Source: a bacterium
Lineage (GTDB): Bacteria; Patescibacteriota; Minisyncoccia; Phycocordibacterales; UBA9973
Reading direction: 5' to 3'
DNA length: 47,674 nt
Assembly: GCA_037130055.1 (NCBI GenBank)
Contig: JBAXTS010000003.1
Location: 1-47,674 of the forward strand
The notes under the pieces are model-generated. The model saw only the letters and a program-made list of their open reading frames with translations, ran no database searches and was not told where the DNA came from. This document shows, piece by piece, positions 2,608-47,560 of this stretch; the first letter of the stretch is position 1; each line of letters starts with the position of its first letter. The translations under genes and the position numbers were made by a program.

Positions 2608-3004
2608 GGGGATGCAAGGCATAGACAGTTGGCCTTTTGGCATTGATGCATACCGAGTATGGGCGTAATCTCGTTAAAATTCGCTCAAATGTTAATTGCA
2701 AAATTGACTTCTAAGGTAAAAGATTTGGTTTCTCCATACTTCGGTATGAAGGAATTTGCTTTTGCTCCAGCTTTCGCGTAAGCCTAGGTTGGTGTCTCAC
2801 TTATAGACTTCCGATATATAAGGTAGGCATAATATTATCGGGATAGGAAGAAGAATGCTCTTACTTTCTTCCAAAACAAAAGAGCTCGATTAAAGAATAT
2901 TTGGCTCGTTTAAGAATTTTTTAATTTAAACCAAAAAGCGAGCTATGTATGTAGATTTCCTTCTAAAAACCTTCTGCACGGGGATTCAATTTCCCCCATC
3001 TCCA
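2608..3004 (+). ncRNA. ssrA: tmRNA; tag reading frame 2698..2781 (AKLTSKVKDLVSPYFGMKEFAFAPAFA*)
   Basis: 5' GGGGATG pairs with 3' CATCTCC-A including the G3-U alanine identity pair; T-arm GGGGA-TTCAATT-TCCCC; GCA resume codon after an AT-rich stretch; Ala-rich tag end; directly downstream of smpB. Confidence 0.93.
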
Positions 3005-3009
3005 CAATA

Positions 3010-20700: not shown

Positions 20701-21057
20701 TTATTTCTTGTCTTTTCCTTTTGCATCGGCCGCGGCAGCGGTAGCTCCTTTGGCCTGGGTTATTTCGGCTTCTTTCTTCTTTTGTTCAAGCTCTTTCTGC
20801 ATCTTTCCTCCATGTTTCATAAATTTCTTTGTTGGTGAAAATTCTCCTAGTCTGTGACCAACCATATCTTCTGTGACAAGAACTTCAACATGAACCTTCC
20901 CGTTATATACACCAAAAGTAAAACCAAGCATCTCGGGAGAGATAACGCATGCTCTTTTCCATGTCTTAACCATAGGCGTCTGAAGCGGGTTTTTACCTGC
21001 AATCTTTTTTAAGAGCCTCTCATCAACATTTAGTCCTTTTTTGATTGATCTTGTCAT
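20701..21057 (-). CDS. rpsS: 30S ribosomal protein S19 with C-terminal extension
   Basis: MTRSIKKG, KTWKRA, VYNGK, MVGHRLGEFSPT. Confidence 0.98.
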   Translation of the reverse strand: MTRSIKKGLNVDERLLKKIAGKNPLQTPMVKTWKRACVISPEMLGFTFGVYNGKVHVEVLVTEDMVGHRLGEFSPTKKFMKHGGKMQKELEQKKKEAEITQAKGATAAAADAKGKDKK

Positions 21058-21081
21058 ATCTTGTTATCTTTTTGGGTAAAT

Positions 21082-21135
21082 AAAAAGCTCCTAACGAGCG
21101 TGGTTTTATAATAGCAAATTTAATATTAATGTCAA
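21082..21135 (-). promoter_or_regulatory. Promoter restarting the S10 operon at rpsS, with a 5' hairpin
   Basis: TTGACA-16-(TGc)TATTAT, then GCTC-GTTAG-GAGC-TTTTT. Confidence 0.75.
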
Positions 21136-21201
21136 CTAGATTCTAAAATACCATTACAATAAAAAGCTAAAACAAAAAAATGTAAAATTCACACTTTTAT
21201 T

Positions 21202-21244
21202 AAAAAGATTGGTGCCCCGGTCCGACTTGCGATCGGGCCAGGGC
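21202..21244 (-). terminator. Terminator of array unit 1
   Basis: GCCCTGGCCCGA..TCGGACCGGGGC hairpin followed by a T-run. Confidence 0.65.
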
Positions 21245-21250
21245 GTTATT

Positions 21251-21406
21251 CTATCGAGCCTTCTTTGAAGAACGAAACCACCGAACACGTTCTGTGGTAT
21301 TTCTAGCTTTGGCAGCCACGACTCTCCATGGACTCAACCATCGCTTTTTCGTTTCTTCAACCTTACCATCCGTCTCCGCCATTCTCCAAGTCTTCCTCTT
21401 TTGCAT
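21251..21406 (-). CDS. Small basic ORF (51 aa), array unit 1; coding status uncertain
   Basis: GGAGGGTGT before the ATG; MQKRKTWRMAETDGKVEE...; followed by a terminator. Confidence 0.4.
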   Translation of the reverse strand: MQKRKTWRMAETDGKVEETKKRWLSPWRVVAAKARNTTERVRWFRSSKKAR

Positions 21407-21434
21407 ACACCCTCCAGTAAATAGAAGAAAACTC

Positions 21435-21475
21435 AAAAAAAGTGAAACCCAGGGACGGCTAAAGTCGTCCCTGGG
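21435..21475 (-). terminator. Terminator of array unit 2
   Basis: CCCAGGGACG-8 nt-CGTCCCTGGG then TTTCACTTTTTTT. Confidence 0.75.
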
Positions 21476-21517
21476 CAAGATTAGAAACCAGTAAATTGTC
21501 CTGACTTCTATGACGAC

Positions 21518-21724
21518 CTATCTCTGGTCGAAACGCGACGGGCCACCCACCCCATATGTCTCGGCCAATTCTTGCCTGACACGTATCGCCCGTTTTAGAG
21601 ACTGGAATTTCTTCCGGTCTCGTACGCGAGCCCTCTTGGCCCACGCAGATGCCTTTCGGCCGGCACCTTTGAAAAATTGCATTCCTCCGGCAACAAAACC
21701 CCCAGCAAGGACGGGTGACGCCAT
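21518..21724 (-). CDS. Small basic ORF (68 aa), array unit 2; coding status uncertain
   Basis: GAGGAGG 8 nt before the ATG; MASPVLAGGFVAGGMQFFKG...; own promoter, 5' hairpin and terminator. Confidence 0.45.
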   Translation of the reverse strand: MASPVLAGGFVAGGMQFFKGAGRKASAWAKRARVRDRKKFQSLKRAIRVRQELAETYGVGGPSRFDQR

Positions 21725-21746
21725 AAACAATTCCTCCTCGTTGTTG

Positions 21747-21833
21747 TGAATCTGCTCCCACCGCTGGGAAACGGTTAACCATAGAAAGAGCAGATCCATT
21801 TAAAATATTATGCTTATAAAAAAATAAATGCAA
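21747..21833 (-). promoter_or_regulatory. Promoter and 5' stem-loop of array unit 2
   Basis: TTGCAT-17-TAATAT; stem TGGATCTGCTC/GAGCAGATTCA enclosing CCCAGCGG. Confidence 0.6.
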
Positions 21834-21847
21834 CAAAAAAAGTGTAT

Positions 21848-21884
21848 AAAAAAGCATGGCCTCCCGTATATTCTCGGGAGGCCA
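21848..21884 (-). terminator. Terminator of array unit 3
   Basis: TGGCCTCCCG-8 nt-CGGGAGGCCA then TGCTTTTTT. Confidence 0.8.
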
Positions 21885-21895
21885 GAAGACGATTG

Positions 21896-22063
21896 TTACT
21901 TCACGTAAAACGTGAAGGGGTCGTAGTCAACAGCGTCCCGCTGTTTGACTTCAACCTTTCCATCGCCTCTCTTTGGCGATGGTGGGACCCGGTGCCCCTC
22001 CGCCATTAGAGTATAATACCCCTGGCGCTCACCCTGACCCTGAGAAGGCTCCTCTTTCTTCAT
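21896..22063 (-). CDS. Small ORF (55 aa, not in ORF track), array unit 3; coding status uncertain
   Basis: AGGAGGGCGT before the ATG; translated by hand as MKKEEPSQGQGERQGYYTLMAEGHRVPPSPKRGDGKVEVKQRDAVDYDPFTFYVK. Confidence 0.4.
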   Translation of the reverse strand: MKKEEPSQGQGERQGYYTLMAEGHRVPPSPKRGDGKVEVKQRDAVDYDPFTFYVK

Positions 22064-22074
22064 ACGCCCTCCTG

Positions 22075-22157
22075 AATGAATCTGCTCCCCTGCCGCTGGG
22101 CAAGCTTTAGAAGAACTGATTCATTTATATTTATACAACTTTTCTAAAATAAAGCAA
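22075..22157 (-). promoter_or_regulatory. Promoter and 5' stem-loop of array unit 3
   Basis: TTGCTT-16-TATAAA; stem AATGAATCAGTTCTTCT/AGGGGAGCAGATTCATT enclosing CCCAGCGG. Confidence 0.55.
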
Positions 22158-22176
22158 GCAAAATAAGGGTATAAAT

Positions 22177-22207
22177 AAAAAAACAAATGTCTGGCATTCG
22201 TTTTTTT
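22177..22207 (-). terminator. Terminator after rplB
   Basis: AAAAAAACGAATG-CCAGA-CATTTGTTTTTTT. Confidence 0.65.
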
Positions 22208-22214
22208 ATTCTTC

Positions 22215-23057
22215 TTATTTATTTTTTCCAGTTTTCCTTCGAGATACAATAAATATATTTGAGTATTTTTTTGGTCCACGAGTCTTTCTTCCGCCTGTAA
22301 CCTTGCCCCACATGGTCTTTGGTCTCTTGGTTCCTCGTCCTTGTCTGCCTTCACCTCCACCGTATGGATGGTCAACAGGGTTCATGGCTGTACCGCGCAC
22401 AGTAGGACGAATTCCTTTCCAGCGACTGCGTCCTGCTTTACCATAATTTTCCAAATGATGCTCTTCGTTTGAAACAGTACCAACACAAGCCCAACAATTT
22501 TCATTTATTTTTCTGATTTCTGTTGATGGCATTTTCAAATTTGTATATCCGTCAGCATTTGCCACAACCTGAGCGAAAATTCCTGCGGAACGGCCAATCT
22601 TTGCTCCACCATTTTGTTTTATTTCAATATTGTAAACGAATGTTCCAACTGGAATATTCTTGAGAGGGAGTCTATTCCCTGGGTTTAATTCAGCTTTTTC
22701 TGATACCAAAAATGAATCTCCTGCCTTTACTGATTTTGGAATAACTACATATCTTTTTTCACCATCTCTATAAACAGCAAGACCAATGAAGGCTGAACGA
22801 TTTGGATCATATTCAACTGTTTTTATCTTTGCGGGAATATCTTTTTTGTTATATAAAAAATCAACTTCTCGGTAAAGACGCTTGTGCCCACTTCCCTTGT
22901 GTCTCATTGTAATACGTCCTTGACTATTACGTCCTACAGAACGCTTGAACCCATGAGTAAGAGACTTGGTAGGAGCTGTAGATGGAGTCAAAACTCCTCT
23001 ATAGCTCACATGAGTCATTTGTCTTCTTGATTTACTTGTAGGTTTATATGTTTTCAT
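22215..23057 (-). CDS. rplB: 50S ribosomal protein L2
   Basis: GRNSQGRIT, EYDPNRSA, GKAGRSRW, MNPVDHPYGGGEG. Confidence 0.99.
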   Translation of the reverse strand: MKTYKPTSKSRRQMTHVSYRGVLTPSTAPTKSLTHGFKRSVGRNSQGRITMRHKGSGHKRLYREVDFLYNKKDIPAKIKTVEYDPNRSAFIGLAVYRDGEKRYVVIPKSVKAGDSFLVSEKAELNPGNRLPLKNIPVGTFVYNIEIKQNGGAKIGRSAGIFAQVVANADGYTNLKMPSTEIRKINENCWACVGTVSNEEHHLENYGKAGRSRWKGIRPTVRGTAMNPVDHPYGGGEGRQGRGTKRPKTMWGKVTGGRKTRGPKKYSNIFIVSRRKTGKNK

Positions 23058-47479: not shown

Positions 47480-47488
47480 ACTATCGTG

Positions 47489-47560
47489 GGGGCCTATTCG
47501 GTTATGCTCCGAATCCGAGAGCTCCACAAGCTCTAGTGCTACTATTACACCATAAGCCCC
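47489..47560 (-). tRNA. tRNA-His (GUG) with encoded G-1 and non-canonical T-loop
   Basis: G-GGGCTTA..AGAGC-TTGTGGA-GCTCT..TTCGG-AGCATAA-CCGAA-TAGGCCC-C. Confidence 0.88.

Follow-up and report, generated by a model that had tools for sequence, protein, structure and literature searches.

A gap between rplB and rpsS holds three small predicted transcription units

We analysed a 47,674-nt stretch of DNA from a patescibacterium (GenBank assembly GCA_037130055.1, contig JBAXTS010000003.1; Minisyncoccia, Phycocordibacterales, UBA9973), hereafter the window, and in it the spacer between the ribosomal protein genes rplB and rpsS. The window carries an S10/spc cluster on the minus strand (gene order rpsJ, rplC, rplD, rplW, rplB, rpsS, rplV, rpsC, rplP, rpmC, rpsQ, rplN, rplX). 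While rplB and rpsS are adjacent in the normal bacterial arrangement, they are separated here by 1,157 bp (21058-22214), and all other S10/spc junctions within the window are tight. The GC content of the gap is 0.50-0.565 in 200-nt windows, compared to 0.26-0.42 alongside and a contig mean of 0.368. Three consecutive minus-strand units, U1 to U3, occupy the gap, each with a GGAGG motif, an open reading frame (ORF) that starts 5-9 nt past this motif, and a GC-rich hairpin just after the stop codon. A previous model-made reading of the DNA letters (the sequence-only reading) had pointed out the split cluster, the GC-rich units, a terminator after rplB and a TTGACA promoter for rpsS, and our measurements bear it out on all of these points. 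In the direction of transcription, the features are as follows (all on the minus strand):

22215-23057: rplB (uL2), 280 aa, last gene of the upstream transcription unit; 72-90% identity to rplB of relatives
22174-22210: AT-rich hairpin and U-run directly 3' of rplB, terminator-like; inverted repeat I6, 16 nt, 94% complementary
22130-22161: U1 promoter, TTGCTT ... TATAAA, extended -10-like; read from the sequence, in a block conserved after rplB in relatives
22076-22126: U1 5' stem-loop at the predicted transcript start; covariance model R1, 55.2 bits, also seen in the minimum free energy (MFE) fold
21896-22063: ORF1, 55 aa, near-neutral, after AGGAGGG (22073-22067); from the ORF list
21848-21884: U1 terminator, GC-rich 10-bp stem, then T-run; scan-positive, stem 21884-21857
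21805-21833: U2 promoter, TTGCAT-17-TAATAT; read from the sequence, 71% identity to the U1 promoter/leader block
21746-21801: U2 5' stem-loop, paralogue of the U1 leader; R1, 60.9 bits, and fold
21518-21724: ORF2, 68 aa, isoelectric point (pI) 11.8, Gly-rich N-terminus and long basic helix, after GAGGAGG (21739-21733); from the ORF list and AlphaFold2 (AF2)
21434-21476: U2 terminator, 11-bp stem, then T-run; scan-positive, stem 21476-21447
21251-21406: ORF3, 51 aa, pI 11.7, after GGAGG (21415-21411); from the ORF list
21202-21243: U3 hairpin, 10/11 bp, T-run 8 nt beyond, a weaker terminator; seen in the fold (21243-21215), scan-negative
21108-21135: rpsS promoter, TTGACA-16-(TG)TATTAT; 11/12 consensus matches, with TG, by scan
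21082-21100: hairpin at the 5' end of the rpsS transcript, GCTCG-TTA-GGAGC followed by a U-run; pattern and compensatory variants in relatives
20701-21057: rpsS (uS19), 118 aa, first gene of the downstream transcription unit; matches in relatives

The hairpin after rplB escaped our terminator scan because it has too few G-C pairs; a hairpin and T-run occupy the equivalent position in relatives. The U1 promoter failed a strict consensus scan, and its block is present after rplB in relatives (loci L034, L037, L039, L040, L051, L052 and L055). All three units had been said to end in a strong hairpin plus T-run, which our scan supports for U1 and U2; the U3 hairpin was seen by folding only, with a distant T-run. 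Units 3 and 2 had been credited with promoters of their own. We found promoters, backed by conservation in relatives, for U1 and U2, and none for U3 (21420-21202).

The supposed kinship of the units held in part. U1 and U2 have only their promoter and leader in common (71% identity over ~105 nt), and their ORFs do not align with each other. ORF1 and ORF3 share two short same-frame patches at the DNA level (10/10 and 15/16 nt, at offsets 30 nt apart) and gave no alignment in BLASTP. No further copy of a unit or leader was found in the 714-kb genome itself, and the ORFs are mutually unrelated orphans; the proposal of a multi-copy system thus fell away. As had also been stated, the gap contains no integrase or transposase. 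We conclude that the three units are a real, self-contained and undescribed feature, and neither a mobile element nor a multi-copy system.

The break in the S10 operon is old, and its filling varies

A DNA search with rplB, the gap and rpsS as query gave matches in 117 of 121 genus genomes (G076 is counted in this tally only). Among the matches listed, both genes were found in 40 genomes, on one contig in 37 and on separate contigs in 3. A gap of 119-2,100 nt separates the genes in all of these 37 one-contig genomes, four of which have a near-empty slot of 119-169 nt. We examined 41 gaps, 34 of them fetched in this way plus L001-L005, L007 and L008; L006 was left out, as a contig end cuts its gap. 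A promoter block for rpsS, TTGAC(A/T)...TTTGCTA(T/A/G)TAT, is present in 41/41. The rpsS 5' hairpin was found by pattern in 36 and by eye in 2 more, with both compensatory variants, AGCTC/GAGCT and GGCTC/GAGCC, occurring; in the remaining 3 it lies further upstream, with a GIY-YIG gene or remnant inserted between it and rpsS.

In other families of the order, rplB lies within 1.5 kb of rpsS at 15/23 loci, with approximate gaps of 70-114 nt in seven and 256-1,315 nt in eight; at the remaining 8/23 loci, no rplB was found within 1.5 kb of rpsS. As gaps occur throughout the genus and also in other families, the break must be old and wide. The insert DNA itself found no match in 40 relatives except for its final ~60 nt, which hold the rpsS promoter. 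The sequence-only reading had taken the units for one multi-copy system. Judged from these comparisons, the conserved unit is instead the slot, a genus- and order-wide break with a predicted promoter dedicated to rpsS, and its filling is exchanged between species. The literature that we searched on anti-Shine-Dalgarno (anti-SD) sequences of Parcubacteria/Patescibacteria, on rplB/rpsS and on small proteins or hypervariable regions of Nomurabacteria does not describe the break or the cassettes, and PMC7247131, as far as available, names no leader from these lineages.

In 25/34 fetched gaps, GC reaches 50% or more in some 100-nt window, with a maximum of 0.71. A typical filling on the operon strand consists of 1-3 units designed like those described here. 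Each opens with a native AT-rich promoter and has a short ORF, its ATG 5-9 nt past GGAGG, ahead of a GC-rich terminator; ~30 ORFs of this GGAGG-led design lie in the gaps of relatives. Larger ORFs, 18 in number, come from 10/41 gaps. Pfam assigned two of them to NUDIX (on the opposite strand), two to GIY-YIG, one to an IS200-like Y1 transposase and one to DUF5674; a Phd/ParE-like pair, weakly indicative of a toxin-antitoxin system, stayed below threshold, and 10/18 matched no family.

The GIY-YIG gene or an apparent remnant lies between the rpsS promoter with its hairpin and rpsS at three loci (L007:1180-1440; L050:623-976; L054, 1230-1370 of the oriented gap). From this position, it would be co-transcribed with the ribosomal genes. 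The IS200-like Y1 transposase gene (L005:700-1500) lies between matching GTACTAGGC...GCCTAGTAC hairpins.

Cassettes are replaced whole between conserved flanks

A comparison of two close species, G068 and G072, was particularly informative. Their sequences agree at 86-95% in rplB, in the promoter/leader block and in the promoter and gene of rpsS, while a stretch of ~250-350 nt that separates the leader from the rpsS promoter cannot be aligned. Given the near-identical flanks, the unalignable cassettes must have been replaced whole rather than diverged. Three other genomes (G013, G018 and G062) differ in the 5' untranslated region (UTR) and the ORF and keep three elements, namely the promoter, the block GGAGGTGAGTAA(A/T)AATG and the promoter of rpsS. 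Indeed, a GGAGGTGAGTAAAATG block that includes the start codon is retained in three species amid scrambled neighbouring sequence.

One pair of loci, L044 and L048, has a third unit in common (~470-700 and 570-790 of the oriented gaps), with 74% identity over 333 nt and no common start codon. By eye, its hairpin is kept by compensatory change (GGTGGGTT/AATCCACC in one versus GGAGGGTT/GACCCTCC in the other). This unit is a candidate small RNA in the slot.

The 5' stem-loop leader is confined to the slot

Six copies of the leader are available, those of U1 and U2 and one each in G056, G059, G068 and G072. They form a 15-pair hairpin, in which two pairs are altered on both sides. In the leader alignment, 91.1% of cells pair, compared to 87.3% in shuffles (8/500 reach 91.1%) and 43-53% with slid partners. 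Model R1 matched 5/150 genus genomes, solely in the rplB-rpsS gap, and these are the five training species. As R1 matches lie in the gap only and no copy beyond those of U1 and U2 exists in the genome itself, the promoter/leader module is local and not a repeat. Leader pattern scans of the genome_contigs (39 stretches) and metagenome_contigs (71 stretches) collections yielded nearly all chance matches in GC-rich organisms; the only records passing R1 were identical to two species already found.

Both leaders carry an ATG at the predicted transcript start (positions 21799-21724 and 22123-22106 of the window). The ATG of the U2 leader (21799) belongs to the 5' arm and shares the frame of ORF2, which accounts for a 93-aa gene call, P0001; that of the U1 leader opens a 5-codon mini-ORF. 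Among the leader copies, the start reads exactly ATGAATC in 4/6, ATGGATC in U2 and ACG in the G059 copy. Leaderless translation is a possibility for leaders that have ATG at the transcript start. In addition, by eye, a (G)GTTCTT motif lies ~8-12 nt past the -10 box in ~8/42 upstream regions, namely in 5' UTRs of GC-rich genes of the same genome, at 22117-22111 of the window and in relatives (L003, L036, L044 and L048).

The ORF products are orphans

ORF1, ORF2 and ORF3 retrieved only themselves when proteins of similar length among 5.8 billion protein clusters were searched, as did ORF2 in a phmmer search of 1.84 billion representatives. In the six frames of 200 genus genomes, ORF2 gave only weak matches, most of them with stops. 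Searches of Pfam (E <= 10) and NCBIfam (E <= 1) returned no family for any of the three ORFs, and no ribosomal protein family. PHROGs and PADLOC held no credible match (best: AbiEii, E = 0.022, over the basic helix; PHROG, E = 0.52), the best ESM Atlas score of 0.81 is at noise level, and the three ORFs matched nothing in viral contigs or, by blastn, in phage and plasmid collections. At the RNA level, no Rfam family reached its gathering score in the gap, the best match in a search to E 10 having E = 0.5, far under the family cut-off. A known mobile element or protein family, which the sequence-only reading had regarded as the outcome that would overturn it, was thus found in none of Rfam, Pfam, NCBIfam, PHROG and PADLOC.

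Coding is plausible for the ORFs. Each fits consistently between its GGAGG and the hairpin, analogous ORFs lie in the gaps of relatives, and the open frames are modestly longer than in dinucleotide shuffles, the three P values (given below) having a product of 6.8e-4, or ~0.02 by Fisher's method by hand. Values of GC1/2/3 of 0.65/0.38/0.62 for ORF1 follow the coding-like pattern (GC1 > GC2 < GC3) of bona fide GC-rich genes in the same genome. AF2 run without an alignment predicted a helix over residues 21-57 of ORF2 (mid-helix pLDDT ~87) preceded by a disordered Gly-rich N-terminus, and no secondary structure for ORF1. Among SD-led ORFs of up to 80 aa in the 41 gaps, 22/30 have a pI of at least 10 and 21/30 a net charge of at least +5. 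Grand average of hydropathy (GRAVY) values are -1.29, -0.54 and -1.40 for ORF1, ORF2 and ORF3, respectively, and no membrane helix is predicted in ORF2.

GGAGG boxes mark a class of GC-rich genes in a genome that lacks the anti-SD motif

The sequence-only reading had recommended a look at the 16S anti-SD, and the result was the most surprising of this study. The tail of the 16S rRNA past helix 45 (contig C1; G000:C1:110-175, locus L174) reads GGAAUAAUUCAAUUUGAAA, not GAUCACCUCCUUA, and contains no CCUCC. The GGAAUAAUUCAAUUUGAAA tail is conserved across 30 16S loci, comprising that of the genome itself (G000), 19 taken from elsewhere in the genus and 10 that represent further families within the order (relatives L176-L204). 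CCUCC is absent in 29/30, and in one relative a CCTCC occurs 19 nt downstream. PMC9297842 already describes a Parcubacteria subgroup that has lost the anti-SD motif. The conserved tail may pair with something else. Searches of the genome with 8-mers for a separate RNA carrying an anti-SD returned only coding or antisense-of-SD sites.

In line with the earlier remark that, within the window, strong SD motifs were seen only at the units, SD-like motifs are otherwise at background level in the genome: a 4-mer SD precedes 44/541 ORFs of at least 150 aa, compared to 9.8% of random 20-mers. Upstream regions of native genes have a weak G peak at -14 and are A-rich from -11 to -2. Sorting ORFs of at least 90 aa by composition, we found a 5-mer SD in 12/27 with GC of at least 0.48 versus 9/604 with GC below 0.44. 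The GC-rich genes of the genome have AT-rich promoters and GC-rich terminators, and Pfam recognised no family in 16 of 20; the others encode a response regulator, Band_7, Ppnp and an InlB-repeat protein, and the Ppnp gene is present in 1/81 genus genomes. U1-U3 are the small end of this genome-wide class of imported-looking, GC-rich, GGAGG-led and mostly orphan genes.

At 36% GC overall, the genome contains 168 islands of merged windows with at least 52% GC, some reaching 0.72, many of which are GGAGG-led genes with AT-rich promoters (for example C32:15331-17360, C4:10891-12350, C4:25781-26630, C5:1181-1950, C3:24821-25750 and C11:9681-10630). Several islands lie at contig ends (C5, C6, C13, C21, C32, C2 and C12), as if the assembly breaks there.

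A probable hypervariable slot for accessory cassettes

On balance, we moderately favour the interpretation that the gap holds moron-like accessory cassettes (see below), probably protein-coding, in a hypervariable slot at an old break of the S10 operon. The terminator after rplB would end the upstream unit, and rpsS would be run by its own conserved promoter with the 5' hairpin. Self-contained modules, each with a promoter, sometimes a 5' stem-loop, a GGAGG motif, a GC-rich ORF and a GC-rich terminator, would be swapped whole, even between close species, probably by recombination via the conserved flanks. Three such modules would stand in tandem here, the promoter and stem-loop of U1/U2 being found at the site in four related species as well. 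Transcription would start from the sigma-70-like promoters, with the promoterless U3 depending on transcription past the U2 terminator; the 5' hairpins probably have a protective role for the transcripts, and the terminators would insulate rpsS, hence its own promoter. The products are most likely orphan proteins specific to the species, 55, 68 and 51 aa in length; two of them are very basic, and they probably act as small nucleic-acid-binding or ribosome-binding proteins. Our data show the anatomy, the conserved break, the replacement of cassettes, the orphan status of the ORFs and the compositional class, whereas we infer translation, RNA stabilisation, the mode of exchange and product function. 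Like the rest of their class, the units would be DNA of foreign or recent origin and no part of the core ribosomal gene set.

A number of observations weigh against this interpretation. With no CCUCC in the 16S rRNA, GGAGG cannot act as a classical SD. Individually, the lengths of the ORFs are within chance when compared to dinucleotide shuffles (P = 0.12, 0.09 and 0.064 for ORF1, ORF2 and ORF3), GC1/2/3 of ORF3 (0.43/0.55/0.45) is non-coding-like, and ORF1 on its own folds with z = -5.1 in a region with a near-perfect hairpin run. The SD-led frame of slot ORFs averages a charge of +0.174 per residue, while frame +1 has +0.149 (P = 0.27) and frame +2 has +0.07 (P = 0.007); the basic charge is thus partly compositional and speaks for selection only in part. 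The additional copies that we found of a related cassette hardly differed from one another, leaving no variation for a dN/dS test of purifying selection. The GC-rich class is unevenly distributed in the genus: in the partial genomes used for comparison, it has no member in 400 kb of G133, which has a nearly empty slot, or in 60 kb of G045, and an SD precedes 3/12 such GC-rich ORFs in G094 and 0/2 in G049. Donors of the putatively imported DNA are not among the sequences searched, and no RNA run containing the stretch is listed, only one DNA run.

Several of these points would suit structured small RNAs, in which the ORFs would be incidental to GC-rich sequence and GGAGG would be an RNA motif. 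We consider this unlikely. Whole-unit folds have z values of -6.4 (U1), -4.8 (U2) and -2.4 (U3), the 3' half of U1 is a near-perfect chain of hairpins, and the lack of an anti-SD, the individually non-significant open frames, the orphan status of the ORFs and the L044/L048 unit with its compensatory hairpin change and missing common start codon are all in keeping with RNA products. However, no Rfam family matched even to E 10, and the sequences are not conserved between species, so that no RNA family can be defined. Moreover, an ORF takes up the interval between GGAGG and the terminator in each of the three units as well as in the ~30 cases in relatives, the same GGAGG/GC-rich design precedes undoubted protein genes elsewhere in the genome, and the GGAGGTGAGTAAAATG block is kept together with its start codon. 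Alternatively, the slot might be reserved for tiny, basic and rapidly evolving peptides that are made together with the ribosomal proteins and attach to the ribosome or rRNA as species-specific accessories. Basic ribosomal proteins of small size and poor conservation are familiar (bS22, bL37 and Thx), and the position of the slot within a ribosomal-protein cluster, its being filled in most species, the high pI of ORF2 and ORF3 and the charge of most small SD-led ORFs would fit. The idea nevertheless strikes us as distinctly unlikely, given that basicity stems partly from base composition, ORF1 is near-neutral, four genus slots are near-empty and others hold NUDIX, GIY-YIG or transposase genes, no similarity to ribosomal protein families was found, and cassettes are replaced and not conserved.

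At the other extreme, the gap DNA might be functionless neutral debris, considering that promoter- and terminator-like sequences arise easily in AT-rich DNA. Species-specific orphan sequences, a slot that tolerates 119 to 2,100 nt and the selfish genes found in it (IS200-like, GIY-YIG and the toxin-antitoxin-like pair) point this way, as would co-existing alleles, which are suggested by sequencing depth (11.6 over the gap compared to 16.9 and 21.6 on the flanks) and by breaks of the Logan assembly graph at the start of rpsS and inside rplB. Yet the promoter and stem-loop are conserved in five species, with 91% pairing versus 43-53% for slid partners, the design of promoter, GGAGG, ORF and terminator is uniform, and AT-rich signals border sharply on GC-rich bodies with no drift towards 36% GC; we regard debris as improbable. 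The same graph branches, together with a composition far from that of the flanks, could indicate an artefact of assembly or binning that placed GC-rich foreign reads in an AT-rich contig. Against this, one Logan contig spans 21028-22625 with no break and no difference, the 120 nt at the right-hand end of the gap match the equivalent position in two other genomes at 87-88% identity, and the architecture recurs in dozens of independent assemblies. The contig thus covers both junctions, at which the sequence-only reading had seen a risk of mis-assembly, although it stems from a DNA run of what is probably the source sample and its support is not independent; an artefact is barely credible. Finally, type I toxin-antitoxin-like units, in which the mRNA for a toxic peptide would be silenced by its own fold or by an antisense RNA, had been among the options considered earlier. 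Type I loci are typically orphans in searches, and small tandem ORFs on highly structured mRNAs, the Gly-rich and mildly hydrophobic N-terminus of ORF2 and the predicted single-sequence MFE fold of U1, in which GGAGGGCG (the GGAGG region) pairs with the 3' region, would be compatible with them. Most of the defining features fail, however: ORF1 and ORF3 are strongly hydrophilic, ORF2 has a GRAVY of -0.54 with no predicted membrane helix, and there are no further copies in the genome. A scan for promoter-like sites gave no indication of an antisense promoter beyond chance (4 sites on both strands versus 3.9 expected). We regard this option as very improbable.

CsrA-decoy RNAs were rejected as a candidate, as a search of the genome, which is 98% complete, did not detect PF02599 (positive controls were detected in 3 genomes). 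The earlier option of decoy RNAs that present SD/GGA motifs therefore has no CsrA partner in this genome.

In this order of Parcubacteria, with its loss of the 16S anti-SD, canonical GGAGG(TGA) boxes are kept before GC-rich accessory genes, and at the slot they persist where the surroundings are scrambled. It is conceivable, if a long shot, that the box is read by a factor other than the 16S tail, either along an initiation route of its own or by an RNA or protein acting in trans. This would constitute a private expression channel for fast-turnover accessory mini-genes, and the rplB-rpsS slot would be the docking site that is conserved best. Our observations thus sharpen a puzzle, namely the role of perfect SD boxes where ribosomes cannot pair with them. 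Beyond this, the uL2-uS19 junction is among the most conserved adjacencies in bacteria; here it exhibits an order-wide break, repair by a promoter and a swap site for tiny genes. The locus is easily amplified via conserved primer sites in rplB and rpsS, and thus lends itself to studies of gene turnover, strain diversity and small-protein birth or import in uncultured bacteria with reduced genomes. If the basic products did bind ribosomes, they would represent lineage-specific ribosome components in lineages known for missing standard ribosomal proteins.

Other features of the window

The C-terminal tail of rpsS (20701-20800) is rich in Lys, Ala and Glu; relatives align over residues 1-84 only, and the tail differs in length between G068 and G072. 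RNA genes of the window are a tmRNA (2608-3007, plus strand, 112.6 bits), tRNA-His (47488-47559, minus strand) and a tRNA cut by the contig end (1-59, minus strand).

Comparison with known systems

Integron cassettes resemble the slot in having serially arranged small ORFs, each with an imperfect palindrome behind it, and contents that vary between relatives. In the slot, however, there is no integron integrase (the sole tyrosine recombinase match of the genome, Phage_integrase, lies on contig C14), U1 and U2 have promoters of their own, and the palindromes are 28-30-nt terminator-type hairpins with T-runs. Type I arrays such as hok/sok, ldr/rdl and ibs/sib likewise comprise short ORFs on structured mRNAs, in tandem, in intergenic regions and without matches in family libraries. 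The slot differs in its hydrophilic peptides, antisense promoters at chance level and lack of paralogous copies elsewhere. The ribosomal proteins bS22, bL37 and Thx are comparable to ORF2, ORF3 and many other slot ORFs in size and charge, as well as in their location among ribosomal genes. However, they show no sequence similarity to slot ORFs, which are not conserved within the genus and have no counterpart in genomes with an empty slot. As in a classical SD-led gene, GGAGG stands 5-10 nt before the start, whereas the complementary CCUCC of the 16S rRNA is absent.

Chromosomal hotspots are sites of gene gain between conserved core genes, and their content is variable and often selfish or functionally obscure. 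The slot shares with them the conserved core flanks, the variable content and probably recombination via the flanks. It is set apart by its place in a highly conserved gene string, by a conserved 'restart' promoter and by units that are mostly below 300 bp.

Closest to the slot are phage morons, which PMC3594210 describes as independent transcription units with their own promoter and terminator, situated between genes that are adjacent in related genomes and exchanged horizontally. Unlike morons, the slot lies in a cellular ribosomal-protein operon, with no phage gene nearby and no phage, viral or plasmid match, and its cargo consists of tiny orphan ORFs in three tandem units. Like morons, U1 and U2 have promoters that are conserved in relatives and scan-positive terminators (U3 has a hairpin without a promoter), their composition is set apart from the flanks and from the contig as a whole, and they sit between genes that are near-adjacent in relatives, with 119-169 nt between them in four genus genomes and ~70-114 nt at seven loci of other families.

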